Shown: in pieces, positions 1 through 50,658 of the stretch
Layout: the number at the start of each line of letters is the position of its first letter
Numbering within the stretch: the first letter of the stretch is position 1
IMG/VR virus record: IMGVR_UViG_3300047157_000068
Span: 1-64,000 of that record
DNA: 64,000 bases
Direction: 5' to 3' (one strand)
Source: a virus
Program-made: the position numbers and the translations under genes
The notes under the pieces: model-generated
What the model saw: the letters and a program-made list of their open reading frames with translations, nothing else
The model's database searches: none
Told to the model about the DNA's origin: nothing

Positions 1-3000
1 TATAACACCTTCCTTTAAAGGTTTTTCAGTAACCTCAATATTATCAGCAACATCAGGCTGCTCATATATATCATCTAACTTAACAGTTGTTTGATTTAAT
101 ATAGAAGTAATTAGTGGGTTTTCTGCTAGTAATTCTTGTTTGGGTGTAGATAAAAAGTCTTGAAACCCTGTGTCAGAATCAACAAGTGATTGCTCTATAG
201 GGCTTGTATATACAGTTTCACCAGCTGCATTTTTTGTCATTGTACCTGCAGCCCATACTTGCTTTATAGCATTAAATACATTCTTTAGCTCCTGCGCTTC
301 AGCAGAGTTTTTCCACTCTTGTACAGATAAACTTGTTTTACCTGCTGCAGCCATTCTTGATTTATAACTTCTATAAGATCTCCTCAGTACCTCATCAAGA
401 TAAGGACTTATAGTTATTGTATCAACAGTTAATTTAATACCTGCATTCTCAAGCATTACATCTAAATCGGATTTCTGCTCATCAACATCTTGTCTTTTTG
501 CTTCATCCTTTTCTTCTTGAGTTATTTCTTCTTCACTAGTCTGATCTGTTTTTGTAGATTTATAAACATTTATCAGAGACTGTATCATTTTAAATTTTAT
601 ATCATGAACACCCTCAACAACTTTACCGTTTTCATCATAAAAGTCTATAAGAAAGTCTGCATTCCCTGTCTGTAAAAAAAGTACCATCTGTGCTTCATCT
701 GCATATGCACCAACTGGATCTTTAGCTAAATCATTTATTAGTTGATTTGCTAAAGTAATATCAGTATATTTCTCTAGAGCTGCTTTCATTTCTTTTGCTC
801 TTCCCTCTAGTCTATTCTTAGATAATGCTTGAGATCTTTCTACCATCTCAGCAAACTTTTCAGGGTTATTCATAAACTCAATAGCTTTGTCATATACTTT
901 TGCTCTATTATCTAAAGCATAGTAATCAACTATATCAACTAGTGCAGCATCAATGTTATCTTCATTTACAAATGAGCCTTGCTCTTTAGCCAAAAATCTT
1001 ACGTAATTTTTAAACTCATTTCTTAAGCTATCTTTTAATGCTTTGTTTCTTTTAAATGTACCATTCTTAAATCTATTCTTTTTATCAGTAACAATCTTTT
1101 GAATAGCTTTAAGTCTTGTAATTTTTTCTTGCTTTGGTGATGATGCAGTTGGCGCACCTTTTACACTAGCTCCCTCAAATGCATCTATTTCTTCTTGAAG
1201 GATTACAATCTCCCTCTCAATTGATTCTGGGTCAAGTAAAGTAGTAATATCACTTGCAGCCATTTTTGCAAACAAAGGTTCTGCTTCAAGCTTTGAGTAT
1301 ATCCCATCAGCTCTACTAACTGCAGACATAAAACTTTCATTAGTAAACATGTATAAATAACGTGCATGATCATATCCAGCCCTTGCAACTAACTCATTTA
1401 TATATTCTTTCTCTTGTGTCTTACGGTTGAATTTATTTTCATCAAAAGGATTTACATATTTATCTTTAAGCTTATTATAATTTTCTTCCATCTTATCCAT
1501 TTGGATAATGGTTTCATTTATACGCTTTCTTAACTTGCCATCCTTTTTATCTTTATTACTAACACCAGGGAATGCATCAGCTAATTCAGTATCAGTCATA
1601 TCTAAGAAACCTAATAACTGATCTCTAAAGTGTCTTGTTCCATTTGTTTCAAACATTGTAAAAAACTGTTGAAACTTAGCTGCATCTTCAGCATCTTTAA
1701 ATCCAAAGAAATCTTGTTGATAAGCAGACTTCTTCATTTTTTCAGCCATTTCCTTTTGAATCATAAAATTCAATCTGTTGACATCAAACAACTCTGATGG
1801 ATCTATAGCTTGCTCATTCCATGATTTATTATAAGAGTCAACAATTTTTTCAATCATTTCATCTCTTGTTTTTCTAAACTCAGCAAATGTTTCTTTTTGT
1901 TTTGCCGTAGCTAAACCAATACCAGCTTCTTGCAATCCATACTTATATATAGAAGGCACACCCTGCATAAAAGCTCTTTGTACAGGCTGTACAAGACCAC
2001 CCATTAAAAAACCAGACATAAATACATTAAATCCTTCACCAGAAAACTGATCACCCATTGCAGATAGTATCATTTGATTCTGTAATGCAACACCACCTTG
2101 TGCTGGATTTTGTAGTATTTCTGTATAATAACCAACAGTAGCTGCAGATATTGCTTCTTGAGAAACCTCTTGAATACCTTCAGCAACATTAGCTGCAAAG
2201 TAATCTAACATAACTATACCACCACTACCAGCAACACTTTTCCATCCACCCGCAGCTTTAATTTTTGCACCTAGTCTTTTAAGACCTAAGAAACCTTTTT
2301 CTTTTCCTCCTAAATATTTAAAAGGGTTTTTAATTACTTTACCCGCAGCATCAACTACTTTTTTACCTGCTGTATTTATTACATTTTTAGCAATCCCTTT
2401 ACCAAATGCTGAACCTATTGTACGCTGAATACCTCTTTGGAAACCACCTAATGCATTGCCAAGAACTAACCAGTTACTTGCATATATTATTGGTGCATTG
2501 GCCATCATTGTTTTAAATGCAGCTTGATCAGCAGCATTATTTATTCTAGCCATCTCATATTCATCAACACCCTGACCACCATTAGCAGCAGCGTAGTTAT
2601 TCATACCATTTTTAAGTACTTGATTATATGCCATACCAGCTTCTAACTTGCTCTCAGCCATAGCTAAATTAACAGCTCTCATATCTCTATAAAAACCACC
2701 AAACTTTGCATTCATCTTAGCAAGATTACTCATATTTTGACCAGCATTTTTTGCAGTCTTAATATCTCTAAATGCTTTTACTGTATTAGGTGTAAAACCT
2801 CTACCAAGTAAATTTCCTGCAGCTTTTAATCTTTCACCGCCTTTAGCAGCAACCCAGAAATCTCTAGCATTTTCAATTGCTTTAGCTTGCTTTAATATAT
2901 CTCTTGTACGTTCGTACATTTTTGTGAAACTAAAAAAGCCTTTAACACCTTTAACAACGTTTGCACCTGTCTTAGCTATAGTAACTGGTGCTGCTGTACC

Positions 3001-3783
3001 TCCTGAAAGTGCTGTAACACCCGCTAACACTAGCTCTTCTGCAGCAATAGATATAAGTATACCTCCTGTATATGCAGAGTTAGCTGCTAGGTTATTCATA
3101 AACCCACCAAAACCTCCTCTGGTAGAATTCATTATACCCATCTTGTCTTCAAAAGCTGTAGCTGAGTCAAGATCTGGCTCAAGATAATCAGAACCACTAA
3201 ACATAGATCCATATACAGAACTTAATCCTGTACCAACTAATGACCACCAATTACCTCTCATTCTGGAAAAGTCATCATAAATTGTAGAATTTGCATTATA
3301 AAAACTTTCCATATTAGAATATGGAGAATATCCTAACTTATCAAACTCAGGATGTTCAAAATATCTCATAAACTGAGTTTGCCTCATTCCTGTAAATGCA
3401 GGGGCAACTTTTTTTTCTGATACAGGTGTATCATTTAAAGTCAATAACCTCTTCGTCATTGAAAAGGTGTTCTCAGTATTATCAGGTCTGCTTTGAGTAA
3501 CAGGATTATATGTATCAGTAGCAGGACCGGGATCAGCTATACCTAAACTTGCCATAGCACCCACACCATACTTATCTATTGCTGCTGTGTATTCATTAAC
3601 ACCTGATATATCATCAGCTGCTAAATCACCGCTCATAGCATAATTATTAAAATTCTCTTCTGGAGTTTCAAATAATTCTTCAATAGGTTCAAAACGGAAC
3701 TGCCCATCAGGTATTACACTTGGGGCAGGTCTTTCAGCTTCTCTATTAAGTTGTTGTAATGGTGTTTTAGATTCGTTTTCCAT
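1..3783 (-). CDS. Giant internal virion (cargo/ejection) protein, N-terminal part; runs off the left edge
   Basis: ATG at 3783 (MENESKTPLQQLNREAERP...). The frame is open where checked (first ~300 codons and the last codons at position 1); it is absent from the ORF track, consistent with having no stop in the window. Gly/Ala-rich hydrophobic stretches and an EGIQEVSQEAIS motif; position matches crAss-like cargo/vRNAP genes. Confidence 0.8.
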   Translation of the reverse strand, partial: MENESKTPLQQLNREAERPAPSVIPDGQFRFEPIEELFETPEENFNNYAMSGDLAADDISGVNEYTAAIDKYGVGAMASLGIADPGPATDTYNPVTQSRPDNTENTFSMTKRLLTLNDTPVSEKKVAPAFTGMRQTQFMRYFEHPEFDKLGYSPYSNMESFYNANSTIYDDFSRMRGNWWSLVGTGLSSVYGSMFSGSDYLEPDLDSATAFEDKMGIMNSTRGGFGGFMNNLAANSAYTGGILISIAAEELVLAGVTALSGGTAAPVTIAKTGANVVKGVKGFFSFTKMYERTRDILKQAKAIENARDFWVAAKGGERLKAAGNLLGRGFTPNTVKAFRDIKTAKNAGQNMSNLAKMNAKFGGFYRDMRAVNLAMAESKLEAGMAYNQVLKNGMNNYAAANGGQGVDEYEMARINNAADQAAFKTMMANAPIIYASNWLVLGNALGGFQRGIQRTIGSAFGKGIAKNVINTAGKKVVDAAGKVIKNPFKYLGGKEKGFLGLKRLGAKIKAAGGWKSVAGSGGIVMLDYFAANVAEGIQEVSQEAISAATVGYYTEILQNPAQGGVALQNQMILSAMGDQFSGEGFNVFMSGFLMGGLVQPVQRAFMQGVPSIYKYGLQEAGIGLATAKQKETFAEFRKTRDEMIEKIVDSYNKSWNEQAIDPSELFDVNRLNFMIQKEMAEKMKKSAYQQDFFGFKDAEDAAKFQQFFTMFETNGTRHFRDQLLGFLDMTDTELADAFPGVSNKDKKDGKLRKRINETIIQMDKMEENYNKLKDKYVNPFDENKFNRKTQEKEYINELVARAGYDHARYLYMFTNESFMSAVSRADGIYSKLEAEPLFAKMAASDITTLLDPESIEREIVILQEEIDAFEGASVKGAPTASSPKQEKITRLKAIQKIVTDKKNRFKNGTFKRNKALKDSLRNEFKNYVRFLAKEQGSFVNEDNIDAALVDIVDYYALDNRAKVYDKAIEFMNNPEKFAEMVERSQALSKNRLEGRAKEMKAALEKYTDITLANQLINDLAKDPVGAYADEAQMVLFLQTGNADFLIDFYDENGKVVEGVHDIKFKMIQSLINVYKSTKTDQTSEEEITQEEKDEAKRQDVDEQKSDLDVMLENAGIKLTVDTITISPYLDEVLRRSYRSYKSRMAAAGKTSLSVQEWKNSAEAQELKNVFNAIKQVWAAGTMTKNAAGETVYTSPIEQSLVDSDTGFQDFLSTPKQELLAENPLITSILNQTTVKLDDIYEQPDVADNIEVTEKPLKEGVI

Positions 3784-7138: not shown

Positions 7139-10132
7139 TTACATTCCCATCTTACCACTGTAAAATGGTACTGCCCACTTTGATAAACGCTTTTTATTCT
7201 CTTTTGTCTCCAGACCCTTTTTACCTTTTTGTACATAACCTGGGGGTAATCCATTGGAGGACAAATCTCTTTGTGCATTATTCAATCTACTATTTTTACT
7301 TGTAGTTTGAGAATAATAACCAGGATATAAAAACTCAAGATATTCTTTTGTTACTGGTCTTTGTACACCCTCATTATCTTCTCCTATTAGTTTTTGAGCT
7401 CTTTCAAAATCTTTAGCTCTTTGATATGCCTGATCATATTTTCCTTCTTCTGTAAATTTTCTACCATCTTCAGTAAATTCAATTATACCAAACTGATTTG
7501 GGTTAGTATTGAAATTTGGATTAATTGTATTTAAGTTATATGTATTAGCCAAATTAGTTAAGCCTGCATTAAACAGTTCATTATACTTTCCTGTTCTCCA
7601 ATTAGTAAAGTTGTCCTTCTGCTGGAGAGCGGTTATAGTATCATCATAAAGCTGCTTATTAGTTGCATTGTTTAACTGATCTACTTTCATATTAAGTTGA
7701 GGTTGCATAACTCCAACTTGATTCATGGTTCTAACATTATTTTGATTAACTTGATTAATTGCTTTTGCATTAGCATCTAAAGTTTTACCAAAAACATTAC
7801 TTCTTGAAATAGCCTGTGGACCATATGCACCTAGTGCATTAACCATAGTATTTAATGCAGAAGTATTAGCATTTACTCTACCTGTATAATCATCAAGTAC
7901 ATAATCTATTTTTTGATCTTCTAATACAGGTGCATATGGTAAACGTAAAGTATCTTTTATAGCTCCAACAGTATTAAGATTATTAATGTCTTGAGCCCAC
8001 CATAATTTATCTGGGCCCTCATATTCTTTAACATCTGTTGTTATTATTTCTTTATCCGGCTCTGGTAAATCCATCATTCTAATATCTTCAGGACTATAGT
8101 CTATATCAAACCCTGGAGCATTATATGTATATCCACCTCTTGCACCATCAAATCTTCTTTTCTTCCATTTTCTATCTATTTTACCATCACCATCTTCATC
8201 ATAGGTTTTTGGATCATCTTTAAATGCTGCTGCTAAAGATTCATCAGTAAAGAAATATGGTATATAAGGAAGATCTTTCTTTTTAAAATACTCCCTTCTT
8301 TTTTCTTCATATTTATTTTGAAATGATCTCCAGTTTTTATCATAACCTTCTCTGTCTGATCTAGGAAAATTATATTTCCAATTTGGTCCTAACTCATCAA
8401 TGATAGATTGATTTCTAAATCTAAAATCTTCTTCAGCTTCTTCTGAAGAAAATAAAGAAGAACCATAACCAAATTCATCAGCTGTAGCTTGTTCATCAGG
8501 TAATTTTACATTATCATACATACCAGGTATAAAAGATGCTATTCCAGATGCATCTGTTATCTTTTGTTGTTCTTGTACCTCATCTGTATATACATCAGAT
8601 CTATTTCCACTACCTACTATATCAGCTTCTGTTGCTTCTCCTTTTTGTCTAACTCTAGTATCTTTTCTTTCATCTGACGCAGGTTTAATAAACTTTAGTT
8701 GTTTTTTACCATCTATAGTAACTACAACAGGAGAGTATCCTTCTTTAATATTTAAATTAAACTCATTATGTTCTTTAGTTCCTGCTTTAAAAGGATTTTT
8801 ATTTCCTTCTACTTTAGCTTCTTCTTTTTTTGTTACTGGTATTTCTGTGTCAGAAACCTCTTCGTTTTGTCTTTTTTGTACATTAGTTTGTTTAGGACCT
8901 ACAAAGCCTTCTACATCTTCAGGAAACTGTACAGCAAATTCTTCTTCAGTAAGTGAAAGATCACCGTCATTAGATTTTGCTAAAGTCATTGGATCATAGT
9001 TATCAATAGGAGTTAATGCTTTACCATATAAATACTTTTCTCCCACAGTTAACTGATCTAAAAATTTAGGATTTATAGAACCATCAAATTCTCTATGTAA
9101 ATTATGTCTAATAAAATAATCATAATATTCTGCTCTAGTAGCTGGTTGGCCATTTAAAGTATAAGTACTTTTTTTCTCACCATTACCCTCTTGTGCTTTC
9201 TTTATAAAGTCTCCTAACTCTGTACCAAATTTAGCAGTAGTTAATGCTCCTTCATCCCCCAAAGCCATAGCCAGTGGATCTGCACCCATAGGCTGTTGCA
9301 TTTGCTGAGAAGGCATCATTTGTTGATTACCTTGAGGTGCCATTTGCTGTTGATCTTGCTGAGCTAAAAATTGTTGCAACATCATTATTTGTTGTTGTTG
9401 CTCAGGAGGTAAAGCAGCTAATGCTTTTTGTTGTGCTTCTCTTCTTGATATTTCCTCAACCTTAGCTGTAAACTCAATTGGATCTTCTCCAATAGACACT
9501 AAGTAAGGATGAGATGCTAATGGTACACCATCAGAAAATTCTTTCTTTGCTTCTTGCATAAATGCTAACCTAGAAAGATCATTCATGTTTTTCTTTAACA
9601 TTAATTCAGCACTTGTTGCAGATATGTTATCAGAGTATTGTGAGTTTAACTCGCCATAATATTCTTGTAAGCCAAATTTCTTTGACACTTTAGCTGGAGT
9701 TTTTTTAGCTCCACCCATATCAAATTCTGACATCTCATCTTTTGATAGTTTTAATTTACGTGTATCAGAAAAAACAAAAGATTGCTCTGGCAAAAACATT
9801 GGTACACCACCACTTGTATGTCTAGGACCTGTTATATCATATAAACCAAATGTCCCATCATTATTTAAATCAGTCAAAACTGTTTCTCCACCTTCTGCTT
9901 CTAAATTAGCATCTTCTCTTGGTACACTTGATAAACTATATCTAACTGATTCATCTTGTGAATCATTAAAATTAGTGTTTCCATAGTATGCCTGTGGAGT
10001 TGTAACCAAACCATAATCAGCTTGATCACCTGTTGTCATACCACCATCTCTCATAGATTTAGTATCTTCTACAACTTTACCATTGCGTATAGCAAATCCT
10101 TCAGGTAGTTTATTTATTTTAATTTTTGCCAT
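7139..10132 (-). CDS. Internal virion cargo protein (997 aa), Gln-rich, with EAEGGE...GPRHxxGGV module
   Basis: ORF track; ANLEAEGGE...GPRHTSGGVP...FVFSD module, poly-Q segment, DEDGDG motif. Confidence 0.65.
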   Translation of the reverse strand: MAKIKINKLPEGFAIRNGKVVEDTKSMRDGGMTTGDQADYGLVTTPQAYYGNTNFNDSQDESVRYSLSSVPREDANLEAEGGETVLTDLNNDGTFGLYDITGPRHTSGGVPMFLPEQSFVFSDTRKLKLSKDEMSEFDMGGAKKTPAKVSKKFGLQEYYGELNSQYSDNISATSAELMLKKNMNDLSRLAFMQEAKKEFSDGVPLASHPYLVSIGEDPIEFTAKVEEISRREAQQKALAALPPEQQQQIMMLQQFLAQQDQQQMAPQGNQQMMPSQQMQQPMGADPLAMALGDEGALTTAKFGTELGDFIKKAQEGNGEKKSTYTLNGQPATRAEYYDYFIRHNLHREFDGSINPKFLDQLTVGEKYLYGKALTPIDNYDPMTLAKSNDGDLSLTEEEFAVQFPEDVEGFVGPKQTNVQKRQNEEVSDTEIPVTKKEEAKVEGNKNPFKAGTKEHNEFNLNIKEGYSPVVVTIDGKKQLKFIKPASDERKDTRVRQKGEATEADIVGSGNRSDVYTDEVQEQQKITDASGIASFIPGMYDNVKLPDEQATADEFGYGSSLFSSEEAEEDFRFRNQSIIDELGPNWKYNFPRSDREGYDKNWRSFQNKYEEKRREYFKKKDLPYIPYFFTDESLAAAFKDDPKTYDEDGDGKIDRKWKKRRFDGARGGYTYNAPGFDIDYSPEDIRMMDLPEPDKEIITTDVKEYEGPDKLWWAQDINNLNTVGAIKDTLRLPYAPVLEDQKIDYVLDDYTGRVNANTSALNTMVNALGAYGPQAISRSNVFGKTLDANAKAINQVNQNNVRTMNQVGVMQPQLNMKVDQLNNATNKQLYDDTITALQQKDNFTNWRTGKYNELFNAGLTNLANTYNLNTINPNFNTNPNQFGIIEFTEDGRKFTEEGKYDQAYQRAKDFERAQKLIGEDNEGVQRPVTKEYLEFLYPGYYSQTTSKNSRLNNAQRDLSSNGLPPGYVQKGKKGLETKENKKRLSKWAVPFYSGKMGM

Positions 10133-10134
10133 AA

Positions 10135-12723
10135 TTATAATTTTTCTATATCAGCTCCGGCTGCAATTAACTTTGCTAACATTCTTGAATCTACTTCTAG
10201 AGTTTCTCCACCTTGTTTCAAACCTTTAGTTTTCATTGCTAGTTTTATACCTTGTTGAGTAGCCCAACTAGCATCATCATAAAAATCTTGATCATAAACA
10301 TAGTCTCTTACTTGTTGTTTATCTATCCCTGCTTCTTGCATTAATGCTTTAAGATCTTTCTTTTTAACACCTGTAAAGAAATCTAAACCTTCTCCTACAC
10401 TAGAAATATTTTTAGCTTGATCATAAATATCCATAAGATTTGTTGCAGTGTTTGGTTGAATTCCCAAAAGTTGCTGTCCCATTTTTGATTCCATAAAATC
10501 TTTCGGTAAACCTGATAGTATTGCAGCTGTATCAACAACTGCGGTACCACCACCTATTTGCATATTCTTAAGTATATTGTGTTGTACATAATCAGGAAGT
10601 GCTTTAAACCCTTCATTATTAACTCCACCACCTTCTTTAGCAACATTCATATATAGGCCTGTAGTTCTATCTCCTTCACTACCAAATCCACCTGGATTCA
10701 CTAGCTCTCCCTTACCACGTTTGAAATTCATATCATACATAACACCAAAAGTATTATCAGCTATAGTATCTACAGTTTTTAAATCTTTTTCTGCTTGTTT
10801 ATTACTTTTTGCTTCTTTAATATCATTGGAAATTCTAAAACCTTGATAAACTGCATTTGATCCTTTACTATAAAGTTGACCCATTGCAGTATTAGGAAAA
10901 TCTTCCATAGCAAACAAAGGATCTCTTTTTCTTTTAACTGTAGGTTTATTTATCCTACTTCTTAATTCATCTGCAGATGGGCTTCCTGCTGTACCTGGTG
11001 TTCCTTCCCCTGTACCATCACCTCCATCTATATCTATGTAATCAGGTATACCGTCACCATCTTCATCAAGAAAATTACTATTTGATTGTTCTGACTCTTC
11101 TGTTCTATTACCATATGTCCCATCATCAATAGCTGCTCTCTTTACTAACTCAGTATCTTGCATATAATTTGTTTGACCAGCATTTTTCATAAAATCTGCT
11201 AAATCATCTGTATAAGGATTAAATCCTCCTCCAGTCAAATCAAATTCAGATTCTTGTTTACCATACATAAAATCTGGAATATTGAACTGTGCTTTTGGTA
11301 AATTAGAACCACCATATCTTTTAGATTCACCATTAGGAAAAAACTTACCTTTTAAATTTTCATATAACTGCTTACCTTTCTCAGACAAATTATCTATATT
11401 CATATTAAGAAACTTCTTAATTTCAGGATCATTAACATCAATGTTTTCTGTAGAAATTTCATTTGCTATTTTTTCTGACTCTTGAACAAGATTTCCTAAT
11501 ATATCTTTTTCAGGGTTTTCATATTTCCATTGTGTAACATAATCATCAAAGGCTTTTTGATTTTCTTCAGTTACATCAAATTTAATCTTATACTCTGAAT
11601 TTTTTAACTTAGTTAATTTATCATCAACCCTGTTTTGCTTAAAGTTACTAATAGCACCATCTTCACCAAAGAAATCACTAGCTACACTTGCAGTAGTATT
11701 TATTATATCATTTATATTAATGCTTTGATCTCCAAAAGCTGCAGGATTTAAATACATTGGGTTAGGCGCTAAATAACCATTATCTTTATTTTGTATAACT
11801 TTATTTTTATTAGATTTAGAAGCTATATTTATAAAATCAGATAACTGATTTACTGTTGGATCATTGGCAAACTTTTGTTCTAATTTAGATTGTGCTTGGG
11901 GATCAGGGTTAAAACCAATTGGGACATAACCACCCACATTCATTTCTTTTATATAAGAACCAGGCGTTCTATTAGATACAGGTGTATCATAAATACCTTC
12001 TCCACCATCTTGTGCTTTAGGTGCATCATGAGTATATCCTGCTTTCTTTAGTCTAAGATGTGCTTCATGATCTCTTGCTCTGATCTTTCTATCACCTTTA
12101 TACATAAAGTGTGGCTCAAATTCACCACCTTCTTCCTTCTTCCATCCAGCAGCATTCTTAGCAAAATTAGCCATCTTAACTACACTTGGTGGATAAGCTT
12201 TAGTATTTGACATAACTTTGTTATAAGCTTGCTTAACAGTCATACCACGTGATTTAGCCCATGCTGTAAACTTACCTTCATTTTTAGGATCTATTTCAAT
12301 ACCTGACTTGGCCATATTGATTGGATCAATATTCATATCCATAGCTGGTGCATCTTCTTGCATTGATTCTGCCCTTGCTAATTGTTGTGGGTTGTTTGTT
12401 ATTTCTTGAGGGCTAGGTTCTTGTTGTCTTTGAGACTGCTCTATTTGTTTAAATAATTCTAACACCATATCTTGTTCATAACCCATAGTCATAAGTGCTT
12501 GACCTATAAGGTTTTGATCAACATCTTGTGCCATCAAGTTCATTACTATCTCTTGTGGTTGCTGTCCTTGATTCATTGACTGAGAAAAAACCTCAGTTAT
12601 CTGCATAACTTGAGGATCAACTTGAGGTTGCTGTTGCATTCCCATAGGTTGTTGTTGCATACCTGGTTGTTGAGGTATCATTGCTCCTCCTTGCTGTTTT
12701 ACACTTTTTTTGTTTAAATCCAC
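10135..12723 (-). CDS. Internal virion cargo protein (862 aa), modular with repeated xxGG motifs
   Basis: GTG start; Q-rich N-terminus, GKFTAWAK...ANFAKNAAGWK module, DEDGDGIPD motif, at least eight xxGG-type motifs. Confidence 0.65.
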   Translation of the reverse strand: MDLNKKSVKQQGGAMIPQQPGMQQQPMGMQQQPQVDPQVMQITEVFSQSMNQGQQPQEIVMNLMAQDVDQNLIGQALMTMGYEQDMVLELFKQIEQSQRQQEPSPQEITNNPQQLARAESMQEDAPAMDMNIDPINMAKSGIEIDPKNEGKFTAWAKSRGMTVKQAYNKVMSNTKAYPPSVVKMANFAKNAAGWKKEEGGEFEPHFMYKGDRKIRARDHEAHLRLKKAGYTHDAPKAQDGGEGIYDTPVSNRTPGSYIKEMNVGGYVPIGFNPDPQAQSKLEQKFANDPTVNQLSDFINIASKSNKNKVIQNKDNGYLAPNPMYLNPAAFGDQSININDIINTTASVASDFFGEDGAISNFKQNRVDDKLTKLKNSEYKIKFDVTEENQKAFDDYVTQWKYENPEKDILGNLVQESEKIANEISTENIDVNDPEIKKFLNMNIDNLSEKGKQLYENLKGKFFPNGESKRYGGSNLPKAQFNIPDFMYGKQESEFDLTGGGFNPYTDDLADFMKNAGQTNYMQDTELVKRAAIDDGTYGNRTEESEQSNSNFLDEDGDGIPDYIDIDGGDGTGEGTPGTAGSPSADELRSRINKPTVKRKRDPLFAMEDFPNTAMGQLYSKGSNAVYQGFRISNDIKEAKSNKQAEKDLKTVDTIADNTFGVMYDMNFKRGKGELVNPGGFGSEGDRTTGLYMNVAKEGGGVNNEGFKALPDYVQHNILKNMQIGGGTAVVDTAAILSGLPKDFMESKMGQQLLGIQPNTATNLMDIYDQAKNISSVGEGLDFFTGVKKKDLKALMQEAGIDKQQVRDYVYDQDFYDDASWATQQGIKLAMKTKGLKQGGETLEVDSRMLAKLIAAGADIEKL

Positions 12724-12743
12724 GTTGATAATATTATATTATT

Positions 12744-12753
12744 AATATACAAA
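12744..12753 (-). promoter_or_regulatory. Phage promoter motif TTTGTATATT
   Basis: Exact motif 21 nt upstream of the 12723 start. Confidence 0.55.
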
Positions 12754-12783
12754 TAATTAAGGAGATTCACTAATCTTTAGGGT

Positions 12784-15700
12784 TTAAGAATCTTTAATAA
12801 GTTCTGTCATTATGAAATTTGGAACACTCATACCTCTTTGTTTAGCTTCTTGATAATGTTTTGCATTAAGTTTATTATATAATTCTGTTGCACTTTTTTC
12901 TCTATATGTTCCATCATATTTACCAGATATAAAGTTATTGTATACACCGTACTCTCCTCCTTGTGCCATAGATGACATTTCAAAAGGTGATGGATCTTGG
13001 TCTACAGAAGCAAATCTTTCAGGAAATAAATCTGATCTATATTTATTTACTTTTTTAATATAAGAGTCAGCAGGTTTTTCTAATCCAACTGCTTGAGCAA
13101 TCTCAAACACTTGCTGACCTACTCCAGGAATATGCTTATAGTTAGTTGAACTTATATCTGCTAATGTAGCATCGTACAATTCTCTTAAAGCTTGCACCTC
13201 TTCTTGTGAAGTTCTATTATCATCTACACGTCCTGTTTTTAATAATCTATTAGATCCTTGATTATATGCTAAAATTGCCATGTTTCTTATATCAGTTTCT
13301 GTCAAACCTAATGAAGGATATTCTTTTGCATAGTCTTTAAAAAGCTCATAGTTTTTAGTTATCATATATGTTATTGCATCTAAACCTTTATTGTCATCTT
13401 TAAAGTCTTCTACACTATTAATATCAAAATATTCTTTTGCAAAACTATCTAATGATGCAAGTTTAGTTTTACCAATACCTAATGAAATATCTTTATCCTT
13501 TTTTCCTTTAAGATCATATACTACTCCTTTAACAAAAGAAACATCATCTCTTGATCTTGGTACATTACTACCAACTCCTGTTTCAACACCTGTTATACCA
13601 ATAACAGTTGACTCAAGCCAATCAGGATTCACAGAAGAATTTAATATCTTGGGTATTTTTAAAGAATTATATTTTGCTCTTTTAAATATATTCTGAAGTT
13701 GTTCAAGTCTTTCCCCTTCATAAACAACTTTATCTTCTTGAGAGCCTGAATATCTAAATGCTAAATTTTGTATTGCATTATCATTTACTTGAATATCCTC
13801 TATTCCATCAACATTATACTTTGATTTAATATCAAGATTTTCATTAGGTCTCCTGATCCATGCTGTAGTTAATTCATTATATGGTTGTTGTCTAACAGAA
13901 CCATTTACATTATGCGTAATAATTGGAACACCATCAATTATATTTGATACAAATCCACTATGAGTGTTATGTGTTTTTGACTTTAATGTTTCTTCATGAT
14001 GACTTGATCCATCCCAATATAAACCAACTATATCACCTATTTTATAATCTGATGCTTTTGTTTGTTTTTTCTTTTTTATTTGTTTAGTAATTCTTTTTAA
14101 ATCTTCTACTGAATTAACATTTTTAAATGCGGCATCATCATATATATTAAAAATAGTATTACTGTTTTTAGTTCTGTCCATATTTTCATATATGTCCCAG
14201 GCATCTTTATATTTAACACCCAACGCATCTGTCATTACTTCATTTCCCTCAAGTATAGTACACATACCAGCCGCACATCTTGTTTCTTCTAAACTGCTTG
14301 GTATAAAATCAAACACAAGAGCTTGAGGATCTTCTTCAGTATTAGCAGTGTTATATGCATCTAATGCTTCTTTAGTTTGGTCACCAAACTTTCCATCAAT
14401 ACTACTTGTGTTTTTATTAGGTAAGGTAGGAGAAAGATAACCTTCATCAACAAGTTTTTGTTGAATACCCATTACTTCTTGTTTAGTATCTGAAGAATAT
14501 TTTTTATGATATCTGGATATTGATGTAGGATTTAAATTTAAATCATCTACCATAGCCTGATGAGCAGCATATGTATTGCGTCCATATATACCATCTACTC
14601 CAGTATAACCAATGTTATATCCTTTACTTAGCAAAACTTCTTGTAAATCTTTAATTTCTGTTTCACTAGCATTACTCATATCTTTCCAACCCCTTGAGTA
14701 TTCATTAGATTTTCTAATAAAATCAGCAATTAAATTAGGACTATCATATGGTGTCATTAATTTTTCTTCTTCAGATATATCTTGCATTAACTTTTCATAA
14801 TCACCCTTAGCCATACTCTCTGGATTAAGTATACGCTGTTTGTTAAAATTAGGAATGTTTACGGCTGTATTATCTTGTGCAATTACCCTGTCTCTTCCAT
14901 AATCATCATTAAGTTGAGTTGGGTCAGGGAAATTTAAAAAGTCTTGTAATGGTGTACTTGGTTCAAAATTTAAATCAGGTAATATATCAAGTCTGGGTCT
15001 AACAACTCTGGTATTATCTTGTGGTATAGTATATCTTTCTTCACCATTACCATATTGTTTTTTATAATATGGTCTTGTTATATCTAAATATTCAGTTGGT
15101 GTCTTATTAGCTTGTTTAATAGTTTTTCCATATAGGTTAGGATAAACATCAGCTAAAGTTTTACCATCTCTAATAACATTACCAAAATACTCTCTTGTGC
15201 CTTGTCTACCTAAAAAATTTGATAAAGCTATAATATCCTCATAAGAAAAATTAAAGCCTTCTATTTGTGGCTTATACTCGTTCATCAAATCAAATGCATC
15301 TTTTAATAAAGGAGTTGTATTATTTGATTTTAAACCTTCATTAAGTCTTATACCAAATATTCTATTTTGTGCATCTATATCAGCTATAAACTCATCTCTT
15401 GTTCCATCATATAATTTTCCTTTTTGTAATTCAGAAAAACGTTGTCCATATAATCCAGAAGCCGTTGAATCAGGATTTTTCATAAGTTTACCATTTAAAC
15501 TTTCTGCCTGAGCAATTGCTCTTTTTAATTTTTCTTGATCAATATACTTAATTGTATCTTGCCATGTTTCAGGTTGTGCGGGTTGTCCACCATCTTGATA
15601 AACTCTACCACCAAGCTTTTTATAGAAAGCATCTAGGTTTTTCATAATTGATTCAGAATTACCTATCATAGTATTAAATCCTGGACCACTGGTACCTTCT

Positions 15701-16743
15701 CTCATAATTTTAACTAAAGCTGGTGGTAAAACGTATTCACCCCGCATAGGTGCGTTACCCACACCCCCGCTCATACTTCTAGCAATTGATGTACCTTGTG
15801 AACTAACATCAAAAAGTTTTGCATCTGCAGGATCTAAATATGCTGACATAACTCTTTTAGGATCTGCAGGATTTAATAAACCACCCTTCAAAGTATTCTT
15901 TGCATTGTTTAAATAAAAAGGTTGAATATCATCACTAAACCAATTACCATCTTCATAGTTTGTAAATGTTTTATTGTTTACATTTGCATCTTCAATTCTA
16001 TTTAATCTTACAGCATCTGTTTTCTTCATAAGTTTTTTAGAACCATCTGAAGTAAATACTTCTACCATGTCATCAGTTTTATTTAATAATGGTTTTACTA
16101 CTTCTTTTGCTTTATTAACTACCGGTTTTACTAGTTGCTTAATTGGTTCTTTTAAATTTTTACCCTTAGCCAACCATGCAGGTACAACAGGTATAGCACC
16201 CAAAGCATCAAAAGTTGCATCTACATATTCTCCTTCTTCAATATTTTGATTGGCATTTTCTGCATATTGTTTCCATGCAAAAGGATTAACCATATCTATT
16301 ATTGAATCAAAAGCATTTCTTTTAGAATTATTTACATTTAATCTATCAGGAATATCTTGACCACGTGCACTAAAGCCAAATGCTGTCATAGGATTAGCCA
16401 TTATATCAGCAGCTTTTTCATACCATGATTGTTCTTCATATTGAGATATGGTTGGTTGTTCTTTACCACTTTGAGCCATAGGTATTTCAACAACATAATC
16501 TGCATCACCATAGTTATAATTTTCTTTTCCGGGTATCATATCTTGAACAATGCCATTATTACCATATCCTCTAACTGGAAAATCTACACCCTCCATAGTA
16601 ATATCTGATGATGGTATAATGTTAAAAGGGTTATTTACATCAGGGCTATTTCTTTTATATCCTTCTGTACTAAACATTTCTGATACATGTGTTATGTATT
16701 CATTTGGTCCGCCTGGTAATCCTATGCTTTTTTTATTTGCCAT
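12784..16743 (-). CDS. Virion-associated multi-domain peptidoglycan hydrolase / cargo protein (1319 aa)
   Basis: Lysozyme/SLT-like motifs (AIAQAES...STASGLYG; GITGVET...ILAYNQG), two PG-binding repeats (LQEVL...VDGIYGRNT; IQQKL...IDGKFGDQT), CHAP/NlpC-like C...GDIV...H.GFV motif. Confidence 0.75.
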   Translation of the reverse strand: MANKKSIGLPGGPNEYITHVSEMFSTEGYKRNSPDVNNPFNIIPSSDITMEGVDFPVRGYGNNGIVQDMIPGKENYNYGDADYVVEIPMAQSGKEQPTISQYEEQSWYEKAADIMANPMTAFGFSARGQDIPDRLNVNNSKRNAFDSIIDMVNPFAWKQYAENANQNIEEGEYVDATFDALGAIPVVPAWLAKGKNLKEPIKQLVKPVVNKAKEVVKPLLNKTDDMVEVFTSDGSKKLMKKTDAVRLNRIEDANVNNKTFTNYEDGNWFSDDIQPFYLNNAKNTLKGGLLNPADPKRVMSAYLDPADAKLFDVSSQGTSIARSMSGGVGNAPMRGEYVLPPALVKIMREGTSGPGFNTMIGNSESIMKNLDAFYKKLGGRVYQDGGQPAQPETWQDTIKYIDQEKLKRAIAQAESLNGKLMKNPDSTASGLYGQRFSELQKGKLYDGTRDEFIADIDAQNRIFGIRLNEGLKSNNTTPLLKDAFDLMNEYKPQIEGFNFSYEDIIALSNFLGRQGTREYFGNVIRDGKTLADVYPNLYGKTIKQANKTPTEYLDITRPYYKKQYGNGEERYTIPQDNTRVVRPRLDILPDLNFEPSTPLQDFLNFPDPTQLNDDYGRDRVIAQDNTAVNIPNFNKQRILNPESMAKGDYEKLMQDISEEEKLMTPYDSPNLIADFIRKSNEYSRGWKDMSNASETEIKDLQEVLLSKGYNIGYTGVDGIYGRNTYAAHQAMVDDLNLNPTSISRYHKKYSSDTKQEVMGIQQKLVDEGYLSPTLPNKNTSSIDGKFGDQTKEALDAYNTANTEEDPQALVFDFIPSSLEETRCAAGMCTILEGNEVMTDALGVKYKDAWDIYENMDRTKNSNTIFNIYDDAAFKNVNSVEDLKRITKQIKKKKQTKASDYKIGDIVGLYWDGSSHHEETLKSKTHNTHSGFVSNIIDGVPIITHNVNGSVRQQPYNELTTAWIRRPNENLDIKSKYNVDGIEDIQVNDNAIQNLAFRYSGSQEDKVVYEGERLEQLQNIFKRAKYNSLKIPKILNSSVNPDWLESTVIGITGVETGVGSNVPRSRDDVSFVKGVVYDLKGKKDKDISLGIGKTKLASLDSFAKEYFDINSVEDFKDDNKGLDAITYMITKNYELFKDYAKEYPSLGLTETDIRNMAILAYNQGSNRLLKTGRVDDNRTSQEEVQALRELYDATLADISSTNYKHIPGVGQQVFEIAQAVGLEKPADSYIKKVNKYRSDLFPERFASVDQDPSPFEMSSMAQGGEYGVYNNFISGKYDGTYREKSATELYNKLNAKHYQEAKQRGMSVPNFIMTELIKDS

Positions 16744-19700
16744 TATCTTTGTGATAGTAAAAGTTTAGTATTATTTAACCTCAATAGCATTTTTCTGTTT
16801 CCTGATACATTTCTACGTAAAATTAAGTTATTAGAATAATGTCTAAACTTCTTGCGTTCAGTTGGAGATTTTTGATAATTAAGGTTAATTGTATTTAATG
16901 GTCTTATATATCCATTTGATTCTGTGTTAAATATAGACTGCTCAACATTAGTAAACTCACCTCTGTCTCTTGTAATATCCCAAAATTGATTAAATCTAAA
17001 CTTGTGTTCAACTTTAGATACTAATATATCTATACTATTTAAATTTACTATTGGATAATTTAAATTAGCCCACGGACTATTAACTGGTTGTGGGTTTAAT
17101 TCAAGTAAGCCTGATGTTTGATCATTGTTATAAATAATAGATGCATCAAAATTAAAATCTAAATCTTCCCATTTATCACCCCCACACATATTATATTGAG
17201 GATCTCCTTTATAAACATATGTTTCAAGTTGGTATTCAAAACTTCTAATTGTATTTACAGCTTGTCCTGTATTAGATATTAAATCTATTTCCCAAGGATA
17301 ATCCACATTATAAAAATTAGCAAATGAATCACAACGTACATTGTGTCTCCAAATACCTCCATACACATAATTAGCTTGTGTACTTATATAATAAAAATAG
17401 TTACATCTAGCAGGATCAGGTTGTATAAAGTTAGGATCACCAATTTGATAAATTAATGGTGCACTATCTGGACATGTTCCTAGTTCTGTTACAACAGTAC
17501 CTGGCACTGTAATAGGTGGACATTCACATTCTACCTTTCTACATATAGGTGCTAAGTTTGGATCATCACTACATGTACCAGTAGATGAACTATATGTTGA
17601 TGTACTTGGGTCAGGATAAACTAGTGTATAACCTGTAGGACATTCACATACAAAAGGTATAGAACAAACATCACCAGCTATTGCAGTTGCTGAATCTAAT
17701 AATGATTGATTATTATTAGCAGCCATTGTATATTGATTTGGACCTGGTGTTGAATTAGGAACATCATATGTTGTATTACTTATACTGTCTAATAAAGCAG
17801 TTACACCAGGAACTGGATTAGTAGCCCCACAATAAACAGCAAATATTTCTTGTTTATGCTCATCTTGTAAATCTATGTCTGCTGATTGATTTGCTCCTGC
17901 TGCCCAATTACCTGTATTAGCATTAGGTCTACCCGTAGCAATTATAGCAGAATCCTGATACTGAGGTACACCATTTGCTGTACTATTAGCATTAGCACCC
18001 TGTGTTCCATCTGTGACAACAATCAATACTTGTCTAAAACTAGGATCTTGTGTTCTACCAGGATATTGTGCACTAAAACTTGATGCAGACTTATTATTTA
18101 ACATTGCTAATCCCCCATTACCTGTTAAAGGATTATTGATTCCACCAGTACCAAAAATAGCATTATTAGCACTAGTTCCACCACCAGCTGGCCAATTTGC
18201 AGTATATAGATTACATAATGATACACCTGTTGCATTAGAGTTCATACTCAAACCACCCTGAAGTAATTGAGTGCTAGCACCTGCCCACATTGTAGTACCT
18301 ATTTGCATTGTTCCTGCAGCTAAAGCATCAGTTACTTCTGTGCTATTCATAAATACATCTAACCAACGTAATTGTGCTGTACCATTATCTGTATTACCCA
18401 TAACTCCTGTACCAGGAACTAAATTTCCAGCAGCATCAAATACCATAGGAGTATAATTAGGAGGTCCACTAGGTGTAGTACTTCCAGATACATCCATTGC
18501 AATAACAATATCTAATAAACAATTAGTTGCTCCACCTGTAATATCAGCTGCTATATTAGTAACAGTTACTTCAGAATCTTCTACCTCATTTATACTTATT
18601 TCACATAAACCATTTACTGGGTTAAATGTATATCCTGGAGGACAAGATGGATTGTTTAAATCTTCAAAAGCATTAGTAGTAAAAAAATGATTTATGCTTG
18701 GTAACGCTAATCCCGGATGCCAATCATGAAATGATATCCATGCTTTAGCTTTTGGATCATAACTAACAGTCCATGAGCAGTCATCAAAATATAGTGGATC
18801 TCCTATATCTACAGGAATACTATTAGCTCCTAAAGTAATAGTAATTGGTTTAGCTATGCTATCAGTAAATTCAGCTGTTGCTATATATTGTGATTTAAGT
18901 TGATAATCCTTTTTCATAAAGTATACTATATCATCTACTGAATCATAAATGACATGACACCCAACTCCTGCAACAGGGTTATCTGACCAAACAGAATTCT
19001 CTGATTCTGGAAACTGTTTTACAAATTTAGAAGGTAAGTATTTTGCAAACCACCATTTCATTCCATTATTAGAAATAGGATCTAAACCTTTACCTCCATA
19101 CTGAAATATTTTACCTTGAGCTTGAGATATAAAAAATAAACCTAAAGGTGTATTTATAACTCCTCTTAAACTTTCTGATGAACCATATTCATTTGATAAA
19201 TCTGCATTAGCAACATTTTGAAATGGTTGGCTAAACAATCCTCCGTCACCTATAGTAAGTTTAGTATCTAACTGTGTTCTTAAAGTATCAAGACCTTGGA
19301 ACATTTGAGGTGATAAGTGAGGAAAGAATATTAATGCTCCACTTTTATTTATTGGTTTTATTACACTAACATCATTTTTAAAGTCTTTATAATTGTTTTG
19401 CAAAAAGACTCTCCAAAAATCTTTCTTAGATTCTTCCTGTGCTTGTAATGAGTAGATTAATCTTTTTGGATAATTTACAAAACATTCCTCTGCAGTTATT
19501 GGATCATAGTCTAAAGGTTGAACAAGACCAAAAGATGTCATTTGTGTAGGAAACTTACTAGGGCTTAATGACTCATCATATTTATAAAAGTTATCTGCCT
19601 TTTCAATCCTTGCATGAAATAATGCATCTACATCATTATAATCATAAGGCTCATATATTCTTTTTTGTGGTTCATCTTCCCAATCTCTGTGTGCTAAATT

Positions 19701-22700
19701 TACATCTGATTCAACATAAAAATCTAATATACCATTAGTATGCGTATAACCATATGCATATCTCATTTCAAAAAACCCATTAGGGTCACTACCATTCCAT
19801 GTTGAACTATCAAATGCACCTCCACATGAGTTTTCTCCTCTATCTAAATAATATAGATCATTTGGAACTATATCATCCCAACCACCAATAAGACCTGTGA
19901 GACCTAAACTTGATACTGCTCTAGCTAAATTAGTTATATCAAATCTTTGTGAGTTCATCCAATATCTTGGATAAGGTATGTTTACATATAAGGCATAATC
20001 AAATGTAAAACCATCTGGTTCTCCAAGCAAGTACCTGGTAAAAATAGGCATTATGGTTTTTTCTGTGTATCTTCCAACAAACGTATCACCAGCAAAACTA
20101 GGTGCTGATGAATATAAATAACCTAATGGCTTTTCTGGATCTAATAGTTCAACACAGCCTCTCATAGGTATTTGTTTAATACCTGAAAGCTGTCCATATT
20201 GATTATCAAAATTAAATTTTAATGCACCATAGTGTGCTGATATATCTGAACCACGTGGATTATCTTTTCCTGGAGATACAAAATAATCATCACTGTGAAC
20301 ATTCTCTGTACCATCAGCATTAACAGAACCACCTACTACAAATCTTGAATTATCTTGAACAGTAGGATTTGCAATTTCTTCACTCAATGATACTGCTACA
20401 GTTGTTGGTCTAAATAAATTGTTTATTTTATATTTTCCACTATCAAATGTTTGAAAAGAAGATCCTAAATAATTAGAGTCTTCATTTTTAATTCTCCATA
20501 AACCATTGTTAATTGGTGTAAAATCTGTAAACTGACCATCAGAATTATACTTCCACATGTAGTCTCTGTAATCAGTAGAATTATAAAATGCATCAATAAT
20601 TTCATTACCTGCAATAGCTATGTTTGTTTGAGTACTCAATAAGTTTGTGGCAATCTTAAGAAACTGTGGTAAGTTTGATACATTTGTATCATTACTACGT
20701 GTTCTTTCTACCTTACCAGTTTGAATTCCCGGAATTGCACCATCCTGTTGGTCTTTTTCAGCGTTATAATCTTCTGCATTTCGTGCAGAATTACCACCAA
20801 TATATAAATCACCTATCCCTGCAAGTGCATCAATAAGGTTTGTAGCGTTAAGATCAAAATCTATTCCTGCTGCGTTTTCATTTCCTCCTGCAGCTTCAGC
20901 TGATGCAACAGCTTGATCTCTTGCAGCATCAATATAATCATTAAATCTATCATCCCATGGTCCTTGAAAATCACCACCAGAAATTTCACCCCCACTTCTT
21001 GGAGTCCAGTTTACCGTAGCAACACCAGGTGGTACAGTTAACGTAACAAATCCATTGTTACCCCTTTGCGCTTTACCTTTTATTTCTTCTCCTTTAACTG
21101 TTGTACTAGATAGGTTAGTACTATTACTTGTAGCATTTCTACCAGTAGTACCTCTTAACTGATGCAAAGCATAACCAAATCCAATTATAGCTGAGGCAAA
21201 TGCAGCAATCCCTCTTATTATTTTTTGTTGAGGGTGATCTTCTGATGGTATAAAGTATCCTGATGATCTTCCTGATAATTCACCATATAAACGTGTCTCA
21301 TATGCATTTAAAAAAGGCTGCTTAAACATTAAGTCAGGAGATGAAAATGTAAAAACTGATTTTGAATATCCATCTAAAGGAGCAAAATCATCTATAGATT
21401 CTCCAAATTTATTACATCCTTCAGTTAATTTATCATTAACACCATCTTGAAAATACACATCAGGTCTTAAATCATTATAAGGATGATTAGGATATAAACC
21501 TTGAACAGTTTCACCTCCTATCAAATCTTCAGGATTAGGCACAGTATATTCTCTCATGTTTCTAAACAAGCCCTTTCCTAATATAGATTTAGCTCCTAGT
21601 CTTGAACCTCTTAGAAGTTCATACCCTACAACATTTGGTATATATGTACCATCATTATATTTAGGTCTTTCAATGTTATTAAATTGAACTCCTAAAATGT
21701 TTATTAAATCTATTCCAGTATTTGACAATGCAACAGTAGGTCCAACTTCTTCAGTTGGCATTTTATGATGTCTTATTGGTTTACCACATAAATCACCCCA
21801 TATATCTGGTTCATTTGGATATCTTTCTGTTGACTCCCAATAACCCATGTTACCTCTAGATGTTATTGTAGATCCATCAGGTAACTGTGAGACAGCAGTA
21901 CTTTCAACAGATGCTGTATTATATACTTTAAATAATTTTTCCCCGTCTGTTGTATTTAATACATTAGCTCCATTAAAAAATTCATCTTCATTATAAACAT
22001 CAGGACCTGGTACATTTGTAATTTGTCTAGTTACAACATTATACAATTCTGGAGCCCTACCGGGTATATGATATGAAGAAGATCTTTCCCCTGTATTATA
22101 TATCCATCTTATAAAAAAAGCATACTGCTCATCACGCAAAAAATTATATTTATTACCTCCCTTATGGTAATAGTTAGAAGGTAAAGAATTGGTAACCCAT
22201 TCAACCTTTATGTTATTTGCTAGTGGTTGATAGTTAAAGTCAAATTGTTCAACGGGTCCTTGTCTTATAAGCCAGTCATTTACAACAAACATTGATTCAG
22301 ACTTTTCATAAGCAGGACTCATTAAAGGTATTTGAATTAAGTCTACTGGAGGAAGCGCTTCATCAATATAATCAATGTTAATTTTCTTTTGTTGAGTGCT
22401 ATATAATCCTATTTTCTTTGCAGATGTTTGACCTTGATTTCTCCTGAGTATTACTAATTCATAGTATTCATATTTTTCATCTAAATTAGAAACTTCAATA
22501 TCTAATGATCCACTAGTACCTAAATGATCAAATATTGTTTGAATATTTGATATACCTATGTAGTCACCAACCTTTTGCTCATTTTCTGTATAAGCTATAA
22601 ATGCTTGATAAGATCCATTAGAAATCATACCTGAATCAACTGACTGAGATAAATTAATACAAGGTGTATCAACTAATGGTGCTAATCTTATTTTTTCACA

Positions 22701-46356: not shown

Positions 46357-46419
46357 AATTTTTGATTGTTTTTTTGTTAATAATTAATTTTACTCTGTTT
46401 ATATTTAATTTACTTCTAA

Positions 46420-47760: not shown

Positions 47761-47877
47761 AATATTTGTTGGTTTTAATATTAATAACTTCTTACATATA
47801 TAATATAAGAAATGTTTCTTATATAATTGTCAAGTTAAACTTAAAATATTTTTAAAAAAGTGAAAGTTTTTTGCAGT

Positions 47878-47890
47878 ATATAGCTAACGC
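47878..47890 (-). promoter_or_regulatory. Conserved GCGTTAGCTATAT site
   Basis: The same 12-13-mer occurs at 59976-59987 and 63275-63287, all intergenic. Confidence 0.5.
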
Positions 47891-50647: not shown

Positions 50648-50658
50648 ACCTGTTTAGT

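Follow-up and report, generated by a model that had tools for sequence, protein, structure and literature searches.

Two conserved seam peptides at module boundaries of predicted cargo proteins in a marine crAss-like phage

crAss-like phages load, order, and eject a large complement of cargo proteins. The closest described counterpart of the proteins treated here is C1 (gp45) of Bacteroides phage crAss001 (PDB 7QOG and others; PF25725, crAss_CARG1), of which residues 425-552 were continuously modelled in the virion structure (Bayfield et al. 2023, PMC10172136); virion gel bands of the same phage were reported at 85-100, 150, 270 and >300 kDa (PMC6235969). Cleavage of fused crAss virion RNA polymerase (vRNAP) polyproteins by a zincin-like neighbour domain was proposed by Drobysheva et al. 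(bioRxiv 10.1101/2020.03.07.982082), and processing by a zincin-like metallopeptidase was proposed for polyvalent proteins (Iyer, Burroughs, Anand, de Souza, Aravind 2017, PMC5512222). Here, two short recurring peptides, termed seams, are described in three adjacent predicted cargo genes (A, B, and C) of IMG/VR record IMGVR_UViG_3300047157_000068; the record has a length of 115,836 bp and is complete according to CheckV, and its first 64 kb are the window analyzed. In other phages, the T4 internal proteins carry a capsid-targeting sequence cut by gp21 at L/I-x-E, and the phiKZ inner-body proteins are cut by gp175 at S/A/G-x-E. In polymorphic toxins, a short junction peptide (VENN in CdiA, pre-toxin domains) lies at the border of modules exchanged by recombination.

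The genome has a G+C content of ~32%, and nearly every gene is carried by the minus strand. Matches to PHROG families were obtained for a major capsid protein (MCP, 44737-46356), for portal and terminase fragments, and for a collagen-like fibre, and the RNA-polymerase region with the motif DFDID matches 78 Crassvirales records. Based on the MCP, portal, and terminase matches and on the DFDID region shared with Crassvirales, the record was assigned to a marine crAss-like phage. The MCP alone matches >590 IMG/VR stretches with 87-99% identity. The minus strand contains, in this order, the genes R (2171 aa, 16743-23258), C (1319 aa), B (862 aa), A (997 aa), Y (1094 aa), and Z, and the order R-C-B-A-Y-Z is kept in 11 IMG/VR relatives. 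Genes A, B, and C are placed between the 2171-aa virion protein and the vRNAP polyprotein, within the cargo/vRNAP gene block of a Crassvirales genome; unlike in crAss001, both in gene order and in its start, the block begins here with the 2171-aa protein. Judging from the sequence, R, C, B, A, Y, and ZW (the polyprotein of which Z is the N-terminus) would constitute a cargo block, whose proteins travel inside the particle and enter the host by ejection; packaging and injection of A, B, and C into the host are most likely. The three genes under study are as follows.

7139-10132, minus strand: gene A, 997 aa; very conserved N-terminal 240 aa; three motif copies
10135-12723, minus strand: gene B, 862 aa; C1 (gp45)-like predicted cargo protein of mini-cassettes; the motif excess is concentrated here
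12784-16743, minus strand: gene C, 1319 aa; variable predicted cargo with a conserved N-module (residues 1-95), an exchangeable middle, and a conserved C-module of ~60 aa

All 17 motif copies listed in the first-pass annotation of this DNA were recovered in the three genes at the coordinates given there. The annotation had treated them as a single code, [K/M]-x-x-G-G; nine copies do fit strict [KM]xxGG, while the rest belong in part to a second motif, [KM]A[QK]xG, represented by the looser copies MAKSG, KAQDG, KAQEG, AKFG, MAQSG, and MAQGG. The copies, together with one leader copy in C and the module that two of them enclose, are listed below with their state in homologues and, where modelled, the predicted local distance difference test (pLDDT) of AlphaFold2.

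9185-9235, minus strand: AKFGTE and KAQEGNGE (AKFG 9224-9235, KAQEG 9185-9199; A 300-305 and 312-319), two second-motif copies at a conserved-to-variable boundary
10040-10054, minus strand: MRDGG (A 27-31), end of the N-terminal leader; G30 and G31 invariant in 24 homologues
10138-10221, minus strand: LKQGG (10207-10221; B 835-839) followed by a nearly invariant 23-aa C-terminal tail
10546-10563, minus strand: MQIGGG (B 721-726), M[AQ][YGI]GG conserved; drop in pLDDT separating a helix from the 730-837 domain
10624-10641, minus strand: AKEGGG (B 695-700), [SA]KxGGG family-wide; end of a disordered segment
11287-11322, minus strand: KRYGGSNLPKAQ (B 468-479), composite joint xxGG-x-x-L-P-K-A-Q containing KRYGG (11308-11322); start of a low-pLDDT segment
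11929-11943, minus strand: MNVGG (B 261-265), lineage-specific copy in an insert; alignment column all gaps in 57% of homologues
12001-12018, minus strand: PKAQDGG (B 236-241), second-motif copy bordering a variable insert; almost every homologue has K-A-[QA]-x-G
12124-12138, minus strand: KEEGG (B 196-200), joint after the 52-aa module; homologous to crAss001 gp45 F426-G-G428
12145-12300, minus strand: 52-aa mobile helical module (IxIKPxNxGKFT...ANFAKNAAG; B 142-193), phrog_20603; no Pfam family matched
12301-12315, minus strand: MAKSG (B 137-141), directly before the 52-aa module; [QMI]A[KE]SG in 44/44 homologues
12685-12699, minus strand: KQQGG (B 9-13), N-terminal leader joint in a disordered segment; [KNR]Q[QMD]GG in 37/38 aligned homologues covering the position
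12952-12969, minus strand: MAQGGE (MAQGG 12955-12969; C 1259-1264), start of the C-module; BLAST blocks to 6 homologues begin at 1256-1267
15049-15063, minus strand: KKQYG (C 561-565), loose copy; no breakpoint found there
15586-15621, minus strand: KKLGGRVYQDGG (C 375-386), double joint KKLGG/YQDGG; block 52/177-381/392 ends and block 383-1319 starts
16459-16479, minus strand: MAQSGKE (MAQSG 16465-16479; C 89-95), end of the N-module; BLAST blocks to 6 homologues stop at 93-97
16708-16722, minus strand: GLPGG (C 8-12), N-terminal leader, absent from the earlier list; K(K/R)S-I-G-L-P-G-G invariant in 9 C homologues

An excess over composition-matched controls was present: pooled over A, B, and C, nine strict copies were counted against 2.25 expected from shuffles (p 0.001). 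Per gene, one, six, and two copies were observed in A, B, and C, with 0.65, 0.91, and 0.68 in the shuffles, and B was the only gene in which the strict motif was significant alone (p ~0.0005); the copies in A and C are nonetheless conserved and located at junctions. These p-values are indicative only, since the motif was defined after inspection of the data. The density of the strict motif per 1000 aa was 2.83 in A, B, and C vs. 0.34 elsewhere in the genome (32,114 aa), an 8x difference, so that the motif is rare in capsid and tail proteins, where the first-pass annotation had not seen it. The second motif was found five times in A, B, and C (0.28 expected), and its only two copies elsewhere in the genome belong to the cargo-block proteins R and Y. 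A glycine pair within the first 40 aa occurs in 3/3 of these proteins vs. 6/83 other open reading frames (ORFs). Codon identity between the motif copies was 0.66 vs. 0.54 expected from codon usage; the same residues are written with different codons, which indicates a protein-level signal and not a DNA repeat.

Logos based on ~130 homologues gave the second-motif consensus [L/A/M]-P-[K/M]-A-Q-x-G-x-E-[I/T/V], with P, K, Q, and E enriched 5-11 fold. The context of the GG motif, [K/M]-[Q/K]-x-G-G-E, was weaker (K or M in 30%, Q or K in 39%, E in 22%). Homologues often fuse both motifs as xxGG-x-x-[L/I]-P-K-A-Q-x-G. The B joint KRYGGSNLPKAQ is one such copy, and similar composites were found in C-family homologues (GGAIPKAQTG, GGSALPKAQ, and GGGLLPKAQTG). 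The motif is not described in the crAss001 atlas (PMC10172136), the 2018 crAss001 isolation paper (PMC6235969), the phi14:2 vRNAP preprint (bioRxiv 10.1101/2020.03.07.982082), or the polyvalent-protein paper (PMC5512222), nor in the other crAss cargo literature searched; the seam peptides are real and appear to be undescribed.

The metagenome protein collection contains 634 homologues of gene B. A set of 18 non-redundant representatives has 86 copies of [KM]xxGG vs. 15.7 expected and 36 copies of [KM]A[QK]xG vs. 2.0 expected. Seven of the nine listed B sites are conserved family-wide, the others (MNVGG and KRYGG) being located in lineage-specific inserts, and the seams persist down to ~35% identity, also in gut Crassvirales C1 proteins, where the counterpart of MAKSG is xxGG. 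Homologues diverge immediately past PKAQDGG. One relative (L007) has the KEEGG joint twice, with an inserted 32-aa cassette in between, and two (L005 and L007) have lost whole modules between LKQGG and a joint upstream of it. The AlphaFold2 model of B, computed with 44 homologues, has a mean pLDDT of 48.6 with confident helical islands at 34-98, 146-193, 386-402, 430-465, 730-837, and 845-858. All 11 GG clusters and MAKSG fall into segments with pLDDT<50, which make up 59% of the protein, and most of them are 2-5 residues from a helical island. No Pfam domain was matched by A or B, and a PDB sequence search with B and C returned nothing useful. In the most distant relative (L011:9995-12779), the B gene is divided into ORFs of 443 and 492 aa that overlap in different frames; the second one again has a short N-terminal leader with GG at its end (residues 12-13).

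The C orthologues vary from 1073 to 2061 aa and have only both end modules in common. The leader, the P-M-A-Q-x-G-x-E site, and the [Y/M]-x-x-G-G-E site are kept in all nine C homologues, while the middle is not homologous. All four internal BLAST block boundaries of the 1319-aa protein coincide with MAQSGKE, KKLGG/YQDGG, and MAQGGE; the orthologues have P-[MQI]-[AV]-Q-x-G-x-E at the first and [YM]-x-x-G-G-E at the last of these sites. Two PG_binding_1 repeats, one at residues 755-797, are the sole domain reaching significance, and C may represent a variable payload with peptidoglycan-binding repeats. The ADP-ribosyltransferase (ART)-like and CHAP labels of the first-pass annotation could not be confirmed, and its ART-like block in C is without support. 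Lytic-transglycosylase-like motifs were noted by eye at 15300-15580 (C ~395-480; E-S ... G-L-Y-G-Q) and 13150-13520 (C ~1075-1200; E-T-G ... A-Y-N-Q-G); no Pfam model was significant for these lytic-transglycosylase (SLT)-like stretches.

In A, orthologues show MAQ[FY]G[TS]E and KA[QG]xGxE at the positions of AKFGTE and KAQEGNGE, and the alignment degrades right past them. AlphaFold2 gave pLDDT <50 over residues 1-124 of the segment 1-240, with no confident structure for the conserved N-terminus alone. An origin of A as the C-terminal half of C1 was considered and could not be demonstrated: neither tblastn of the phage collection nor a comparison with the PDB sequences gave a match, hhalign of the A family against a gut C1 gave a probability of 0.5%, BLAST E values were 0.05 or worse, and PF25725 was not matched.

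The placement of the motifs at boundaries between modules, as claimed in the first-pass annotation, was borne out by the BLAST block ends, the AlphaFold model of B, cassette gain and loss, and the flanks of the 52-aa module. Over all pairs, 33% of breakpoints in C were located <=5 aa from a motif vs. 6% at random, and 28% vs. 13% in B, the corresponding p-values being inflated by shared ancestry. The cassettes comprise the C-terminal tail, the 52-aa GKFT module, and units of 22 aa (YLANRD), 32 aa (RQREG), and 40 aa (PHFMYKG). GG or KAQxG brackets every one of them, and their presence and order vary, giving 29 architectures among 120 homologues. A profile of the 52-aa module, built with the flanks excluded, retrieved 1,761 protein clusters (50% identity) at E<=0.001, in proteins of 63-1675 aa with an N-terminal, internal, or C-terminal position, sometimes twice, and as a stand-alone form at 63-80 aa. 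Among the 81 representatives examined, G or GG directly precedes the module in 73/73 with enough sequence, and GG follows within 10 aa in 70/81, the remainder reaching the protein terminus. The module is a highly mobile mini-domain. The suggestion of plug-and-play payload shuffling is supported, as modules are exchanged, inserted, deleted, and re-ordered exactly at the motifs.

The 52-60-aa GKFT module is common to B and crAss001 C1 (gp45 368-432, alignment numbering). B 142-201 aligns with residues 235-294 of C1 of Steigviridae cr128_1 (E 3e-13, 46% identity), and tblastn matches of the module in gut crAss phages were restricted to the gene after the muzzle ("stabilization") protein, i.e., C1/gp45. 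Both proteins have a basic N-terminus ending in GG and are largely disordered, and small docked segments starting at GG are seen in crAss001. Gut C1 proteins are enriched in GG like B (16 vs. 4.1 and 16 vs. 8.3 expected), unlike their gut neighbour proteins. The PF25725 portal-binding domain, which gave 1.6e-66 in a gut C1 control, was not matched by A or B even at E<=5, and the whole genome, searched in six frames, gave no hit at E<=10; B is therefore considered C1-like and not a demonstrated orthologue. In contrast to crAss001, the gene is split and expanded here, with B and A separate and an extra variable gene C, and the K/M and KAQxG flavour of the seams is specific to the marine group. 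The crAss001 structure paper (PMC10172136) does not describe a seam motif.

The first-pass annotation had also suggested that the cargo is cut at the motif, and this was not supported: the homologous crAss001 joint appears uncut, and searches for a GG-type or prohead protease were negative. The continuously modelled segment of gp45 includes F426-G-G428, homologous to KEEGG of B, and Q433-G-G435 (alignment numbering); the position of both pairs inside the continuous model argues against cutting at these two crAss001 sites. The two resolved docked segments of gp45 (214-245 and 425-552) both start <=4 residues from GG (Y208-G-G210 and F426-G-G428), which fits seams as edges of docking units. The crAss001 band sizes fit unprocessed cargo, judged by size alone. 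For the cysteine protease whose search had been advised, families C5 (PF00770), C39 (PF03412), and CHAP (PF05257) had no match in the whole genome, and neither did PF03420 (S77), PF04586 (S78), or PF00574 (ClpP). A protease in the gap between the portal and MCP genes was also considered and rejected, as the protein encoded there in intact relatives (431 aa, acidic) is scaffold-like and matches no Pfam domain. As to a zincin, an unclassified zincin-like HExxH (HEAFH) is present in the 4,671-aa vRNAP polyprotein ZW, which includes the following element.

1-3783, continuing at genome 105604-115836 (L014), minus strand: Z, the N-terminus of ZW; 1261 aa of the 4,671-aa ORF, with no stop across the record ends

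An ORF spanning the record ends indicates that the genome is circularly permuted. ZW contains Gly-rich hydrophobic segments (220-600), HEAFH at 2146, and the RNA polymerase (RNAP) motif DFDID at 3621, around which it aligns with the gut crAss RNAP subunit. As predicted from this sequence layout, ZW is a zincin-plus-vRNAP fusion, the counterparts of its two parts being separate genes (ZnMc and RNAP) in gut crAss phages, and its HEAFH region is the only candidate for a packaged protease. The HExxH region had no Pfam or PHROG match, and Atlas leads to LPD1, LPD39, and MuF_C were weak (scores 0.89 or less). No seams were found at the expected fusion points of ZW; its GG pairs are not seam-like except KKQGG 1678 and KLYGG 4225, neither of which is near an expected junction. 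Another metallopeptidase, with a DUF2201_N and a VWA-like domain (Pfam 1.2e-17 and 1.7e-17) and HExxH at residue 72, is encoded in the gene block on the replication side at genome 74825-79445 (L015), ~10.8 kb past the window, and is a possible but unlinked protease candidate. The leaders of A, B, and C end in GG and are not of the double-glycine type, as the genome has no C39 domain; the class II bacteriocin leader has its own consensus, from which the basic K-K-S-[IV] consensus of the A, B, and C leaders differs.

Like the polyvalent proteins (PMC5512222), the cargo here would consist of large injected multidomain chains with heavy domain shuffling and putative wall-attacking or effector domains. 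The polyvalent-protein paper gives no junction motif ("glycine" and "linker" have 0 occurrences), and most modules here are cassettes of 20-60 aa and not enzymatic domains. Hallmark polyvalent domains were not detected by Pfam, C showing PG_binding_1 only; for ZW there are the weak Atlas leads to LPD families. The head-internal proteins of T4 and phiKZ are likewise packaged and ejected and have short N-terminal leaders and a recurring short site, and G-x-E is frequent in the seams; unlike in those phages, no assemblin- or HK97-type prohead protease was found here, and the gene between portal and MCP is scaffold-like. Polymorphic toxins have one junction per protein, before the C-terminal toxin, whereas many junctions are present here, between all kinds of cassettes, in predicted virion cargo.

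We consider the seams to be uncut, conserved hinge or boundary elements, a reading given about an even chance of being correct; the role that we infer is that of a hinge or docking element. The cargo proteins would be mostly disordered chains of small autonomous modules, including 20-60-aa cassettes and a few larger domains, and each joint would bear [K/M/aromatic]-x-x-G-G(-E) or (L)-P-[K/M]-A-Q-x-G-x-E-[I/T/V], sometimes fused. The joints would stay uncut, each module would fold or dock alone along the portal and tail lumen, and the hinged chain would thread through the tail during ejection. Since all modules terminate in one common in-frame seam, viable proteins would result from recombination there, and modules could be gained, lost, and re-ordered. 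Several observations weigh against the hinge reading. The uncut joint comes from a distant relative and was seen at one site only, and the short GG-ended N-terminal leaders of A, B, and C and the position-independent cassettes would also fit processing. A plain hinge would do without the extended consensus, in which P at -2, K/M at -1, Q, G, E at +5, and I/T/V at +6 are 4-11 fold enriched; this points to recognition of the seams, by a binding partner or by an enzyme. ZW is a vRNAP fusion of the kind for which zincin cleavage was proposed (bioRxiv 10.1101/2020.03.07.982082). Two further points were counted for the absence of any shared code, namely that A and C are not enriched individually and that glycines lower pLDDT by themselves. 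Together with the weak flanking consensus around GG, they would agree with glycine pairs being common in disordered linkers, module families keeping their own terminal glycines, and the pattern being picked post hoc. This explanation is very improbable given a density 8- to 25-fold above that of the remaining genome, the recurrence of the peptides where unrelated modules end, both in the three proteins and in distant Crassvirales families, the sharp 9-residue consensus of the second motif, and the neighbouring disordered or giant cargo proteins without the motif. Short conserved nucleotide linkers promoting module exchange, i.e., recombination signals at the DNA level, would fit the exchange at seams; they were ruled out for practical purposes by the codon identity given above, which largely refutes them, and hardly any weight is left to them.

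Alternatively, the seams would be cutting sites, at which a packaged protease, best represented by the HEAFH region of ZW, would cleave the cargo in the capsid or after ejection; the leaders would then be propeptides or targeting signals similar to the T4 internal-protein capsid-targeting sequence. The specific extended consensus with frequent G-x-E resembles the phiKZ gp175 and T4 gp21 sites. GG-terminated leaders in A, B, C, and crAss001 gp45, the occurrence of modules as free-standing termini, the HExxH in ZW, the ZnMc annotation on the gut crAss neighbour gene, and the published cleavage hypotheses (bioRxiv 10.1101/2020.03.07.982082 and PMC5512222) are consistent with cutting, which we nevertheless hold to be unlikely: gp45 G427-G428 and G434-G435 are in continuous modelled density (PMC10172136), the crAss001 gel bands fit full-length cargo by size, the genome lacks S77, S78, C5, C39, and ClpP matches, the portal-MCP gene is scaffold-like, the HExxH region has neither a Pfam nor a PHROG match, and ZW, R, Y, and V have no seams at the expected fusion points. 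It is likewise doubtful that a zincin-like protease in the vRNAP polyprotein cuts at xxGG / KAQxGxE and frees dozens of 20-60-aa peptides and separate enzymes. As a further alternative, the seams would be docking or loading tags, and the seam or the following strand-Pro-turn (I-x-I-K-P / L-P-K-A-Q-x-G) would bind a repeated site on the portal, the paralogous tail rings, or the scaffold, loading and ordering the cargo. Docking or capsid loading, the other role suggested in the first-pass annotation, is plausible: conserved sequence in disordered segments is typical of linear binding motifs, the motif is confined to cargo proteins, and in crAss001 GG stands at the start of the docked gp45 segments, with the paralogous rings providing 12-fold targets (PMC10172136). 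As a reading of the seams it was still rated improbable, because copy number and cassette order vary freely, a poor fit to ordered docking sites, and AlphaFold2 gave nothing confident for the A N-terminus. Module shuffling at the seams is regarded as supported and cleavage as unsupported though still conceivable.

Several neighbouring features were also recorded in the window. At 46383-52850 (minus strand), the terminase, portal, and scaffold-like genes are in ~12 pieces, with frame changes and one in-frame stop; in an intact relative (L017), they encode 729, 916, and 431 aa, respectively. The MCP beside them is intact, as are the giant cargo ORFs, and the broken region could be a locally poor assembly or a defective variant. 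At 30578-32221 (minus strand), a 547-aa protein with strong PHROG tail-fibre matches has a Gly content of 22.7% and two GG pairs vs. 28 expected; high Gly with almost no GG indicates collagen-like G-x-y repeats. At 30111-30560 (minus strand), an extremely basic 149-aa protein is encoded, possibly a virion protein that condenses DNA or resembles a histone; its N-terminus consists of successive K, S, T, V, and P residues.

The conserved seam peptide provides a handle for mutagenesis, peptide-binding assays, and N-terminomics, as well as a rule for splitting otherwise unannotatable cargo proteins into modules, and the seams explain payload evolution via cassette exchange. If the seams are cut, they would represent a new kind of phage polyprotein processing, and crAss-like phages would inject a programmable, recombination-shuffled peptide cocktail.

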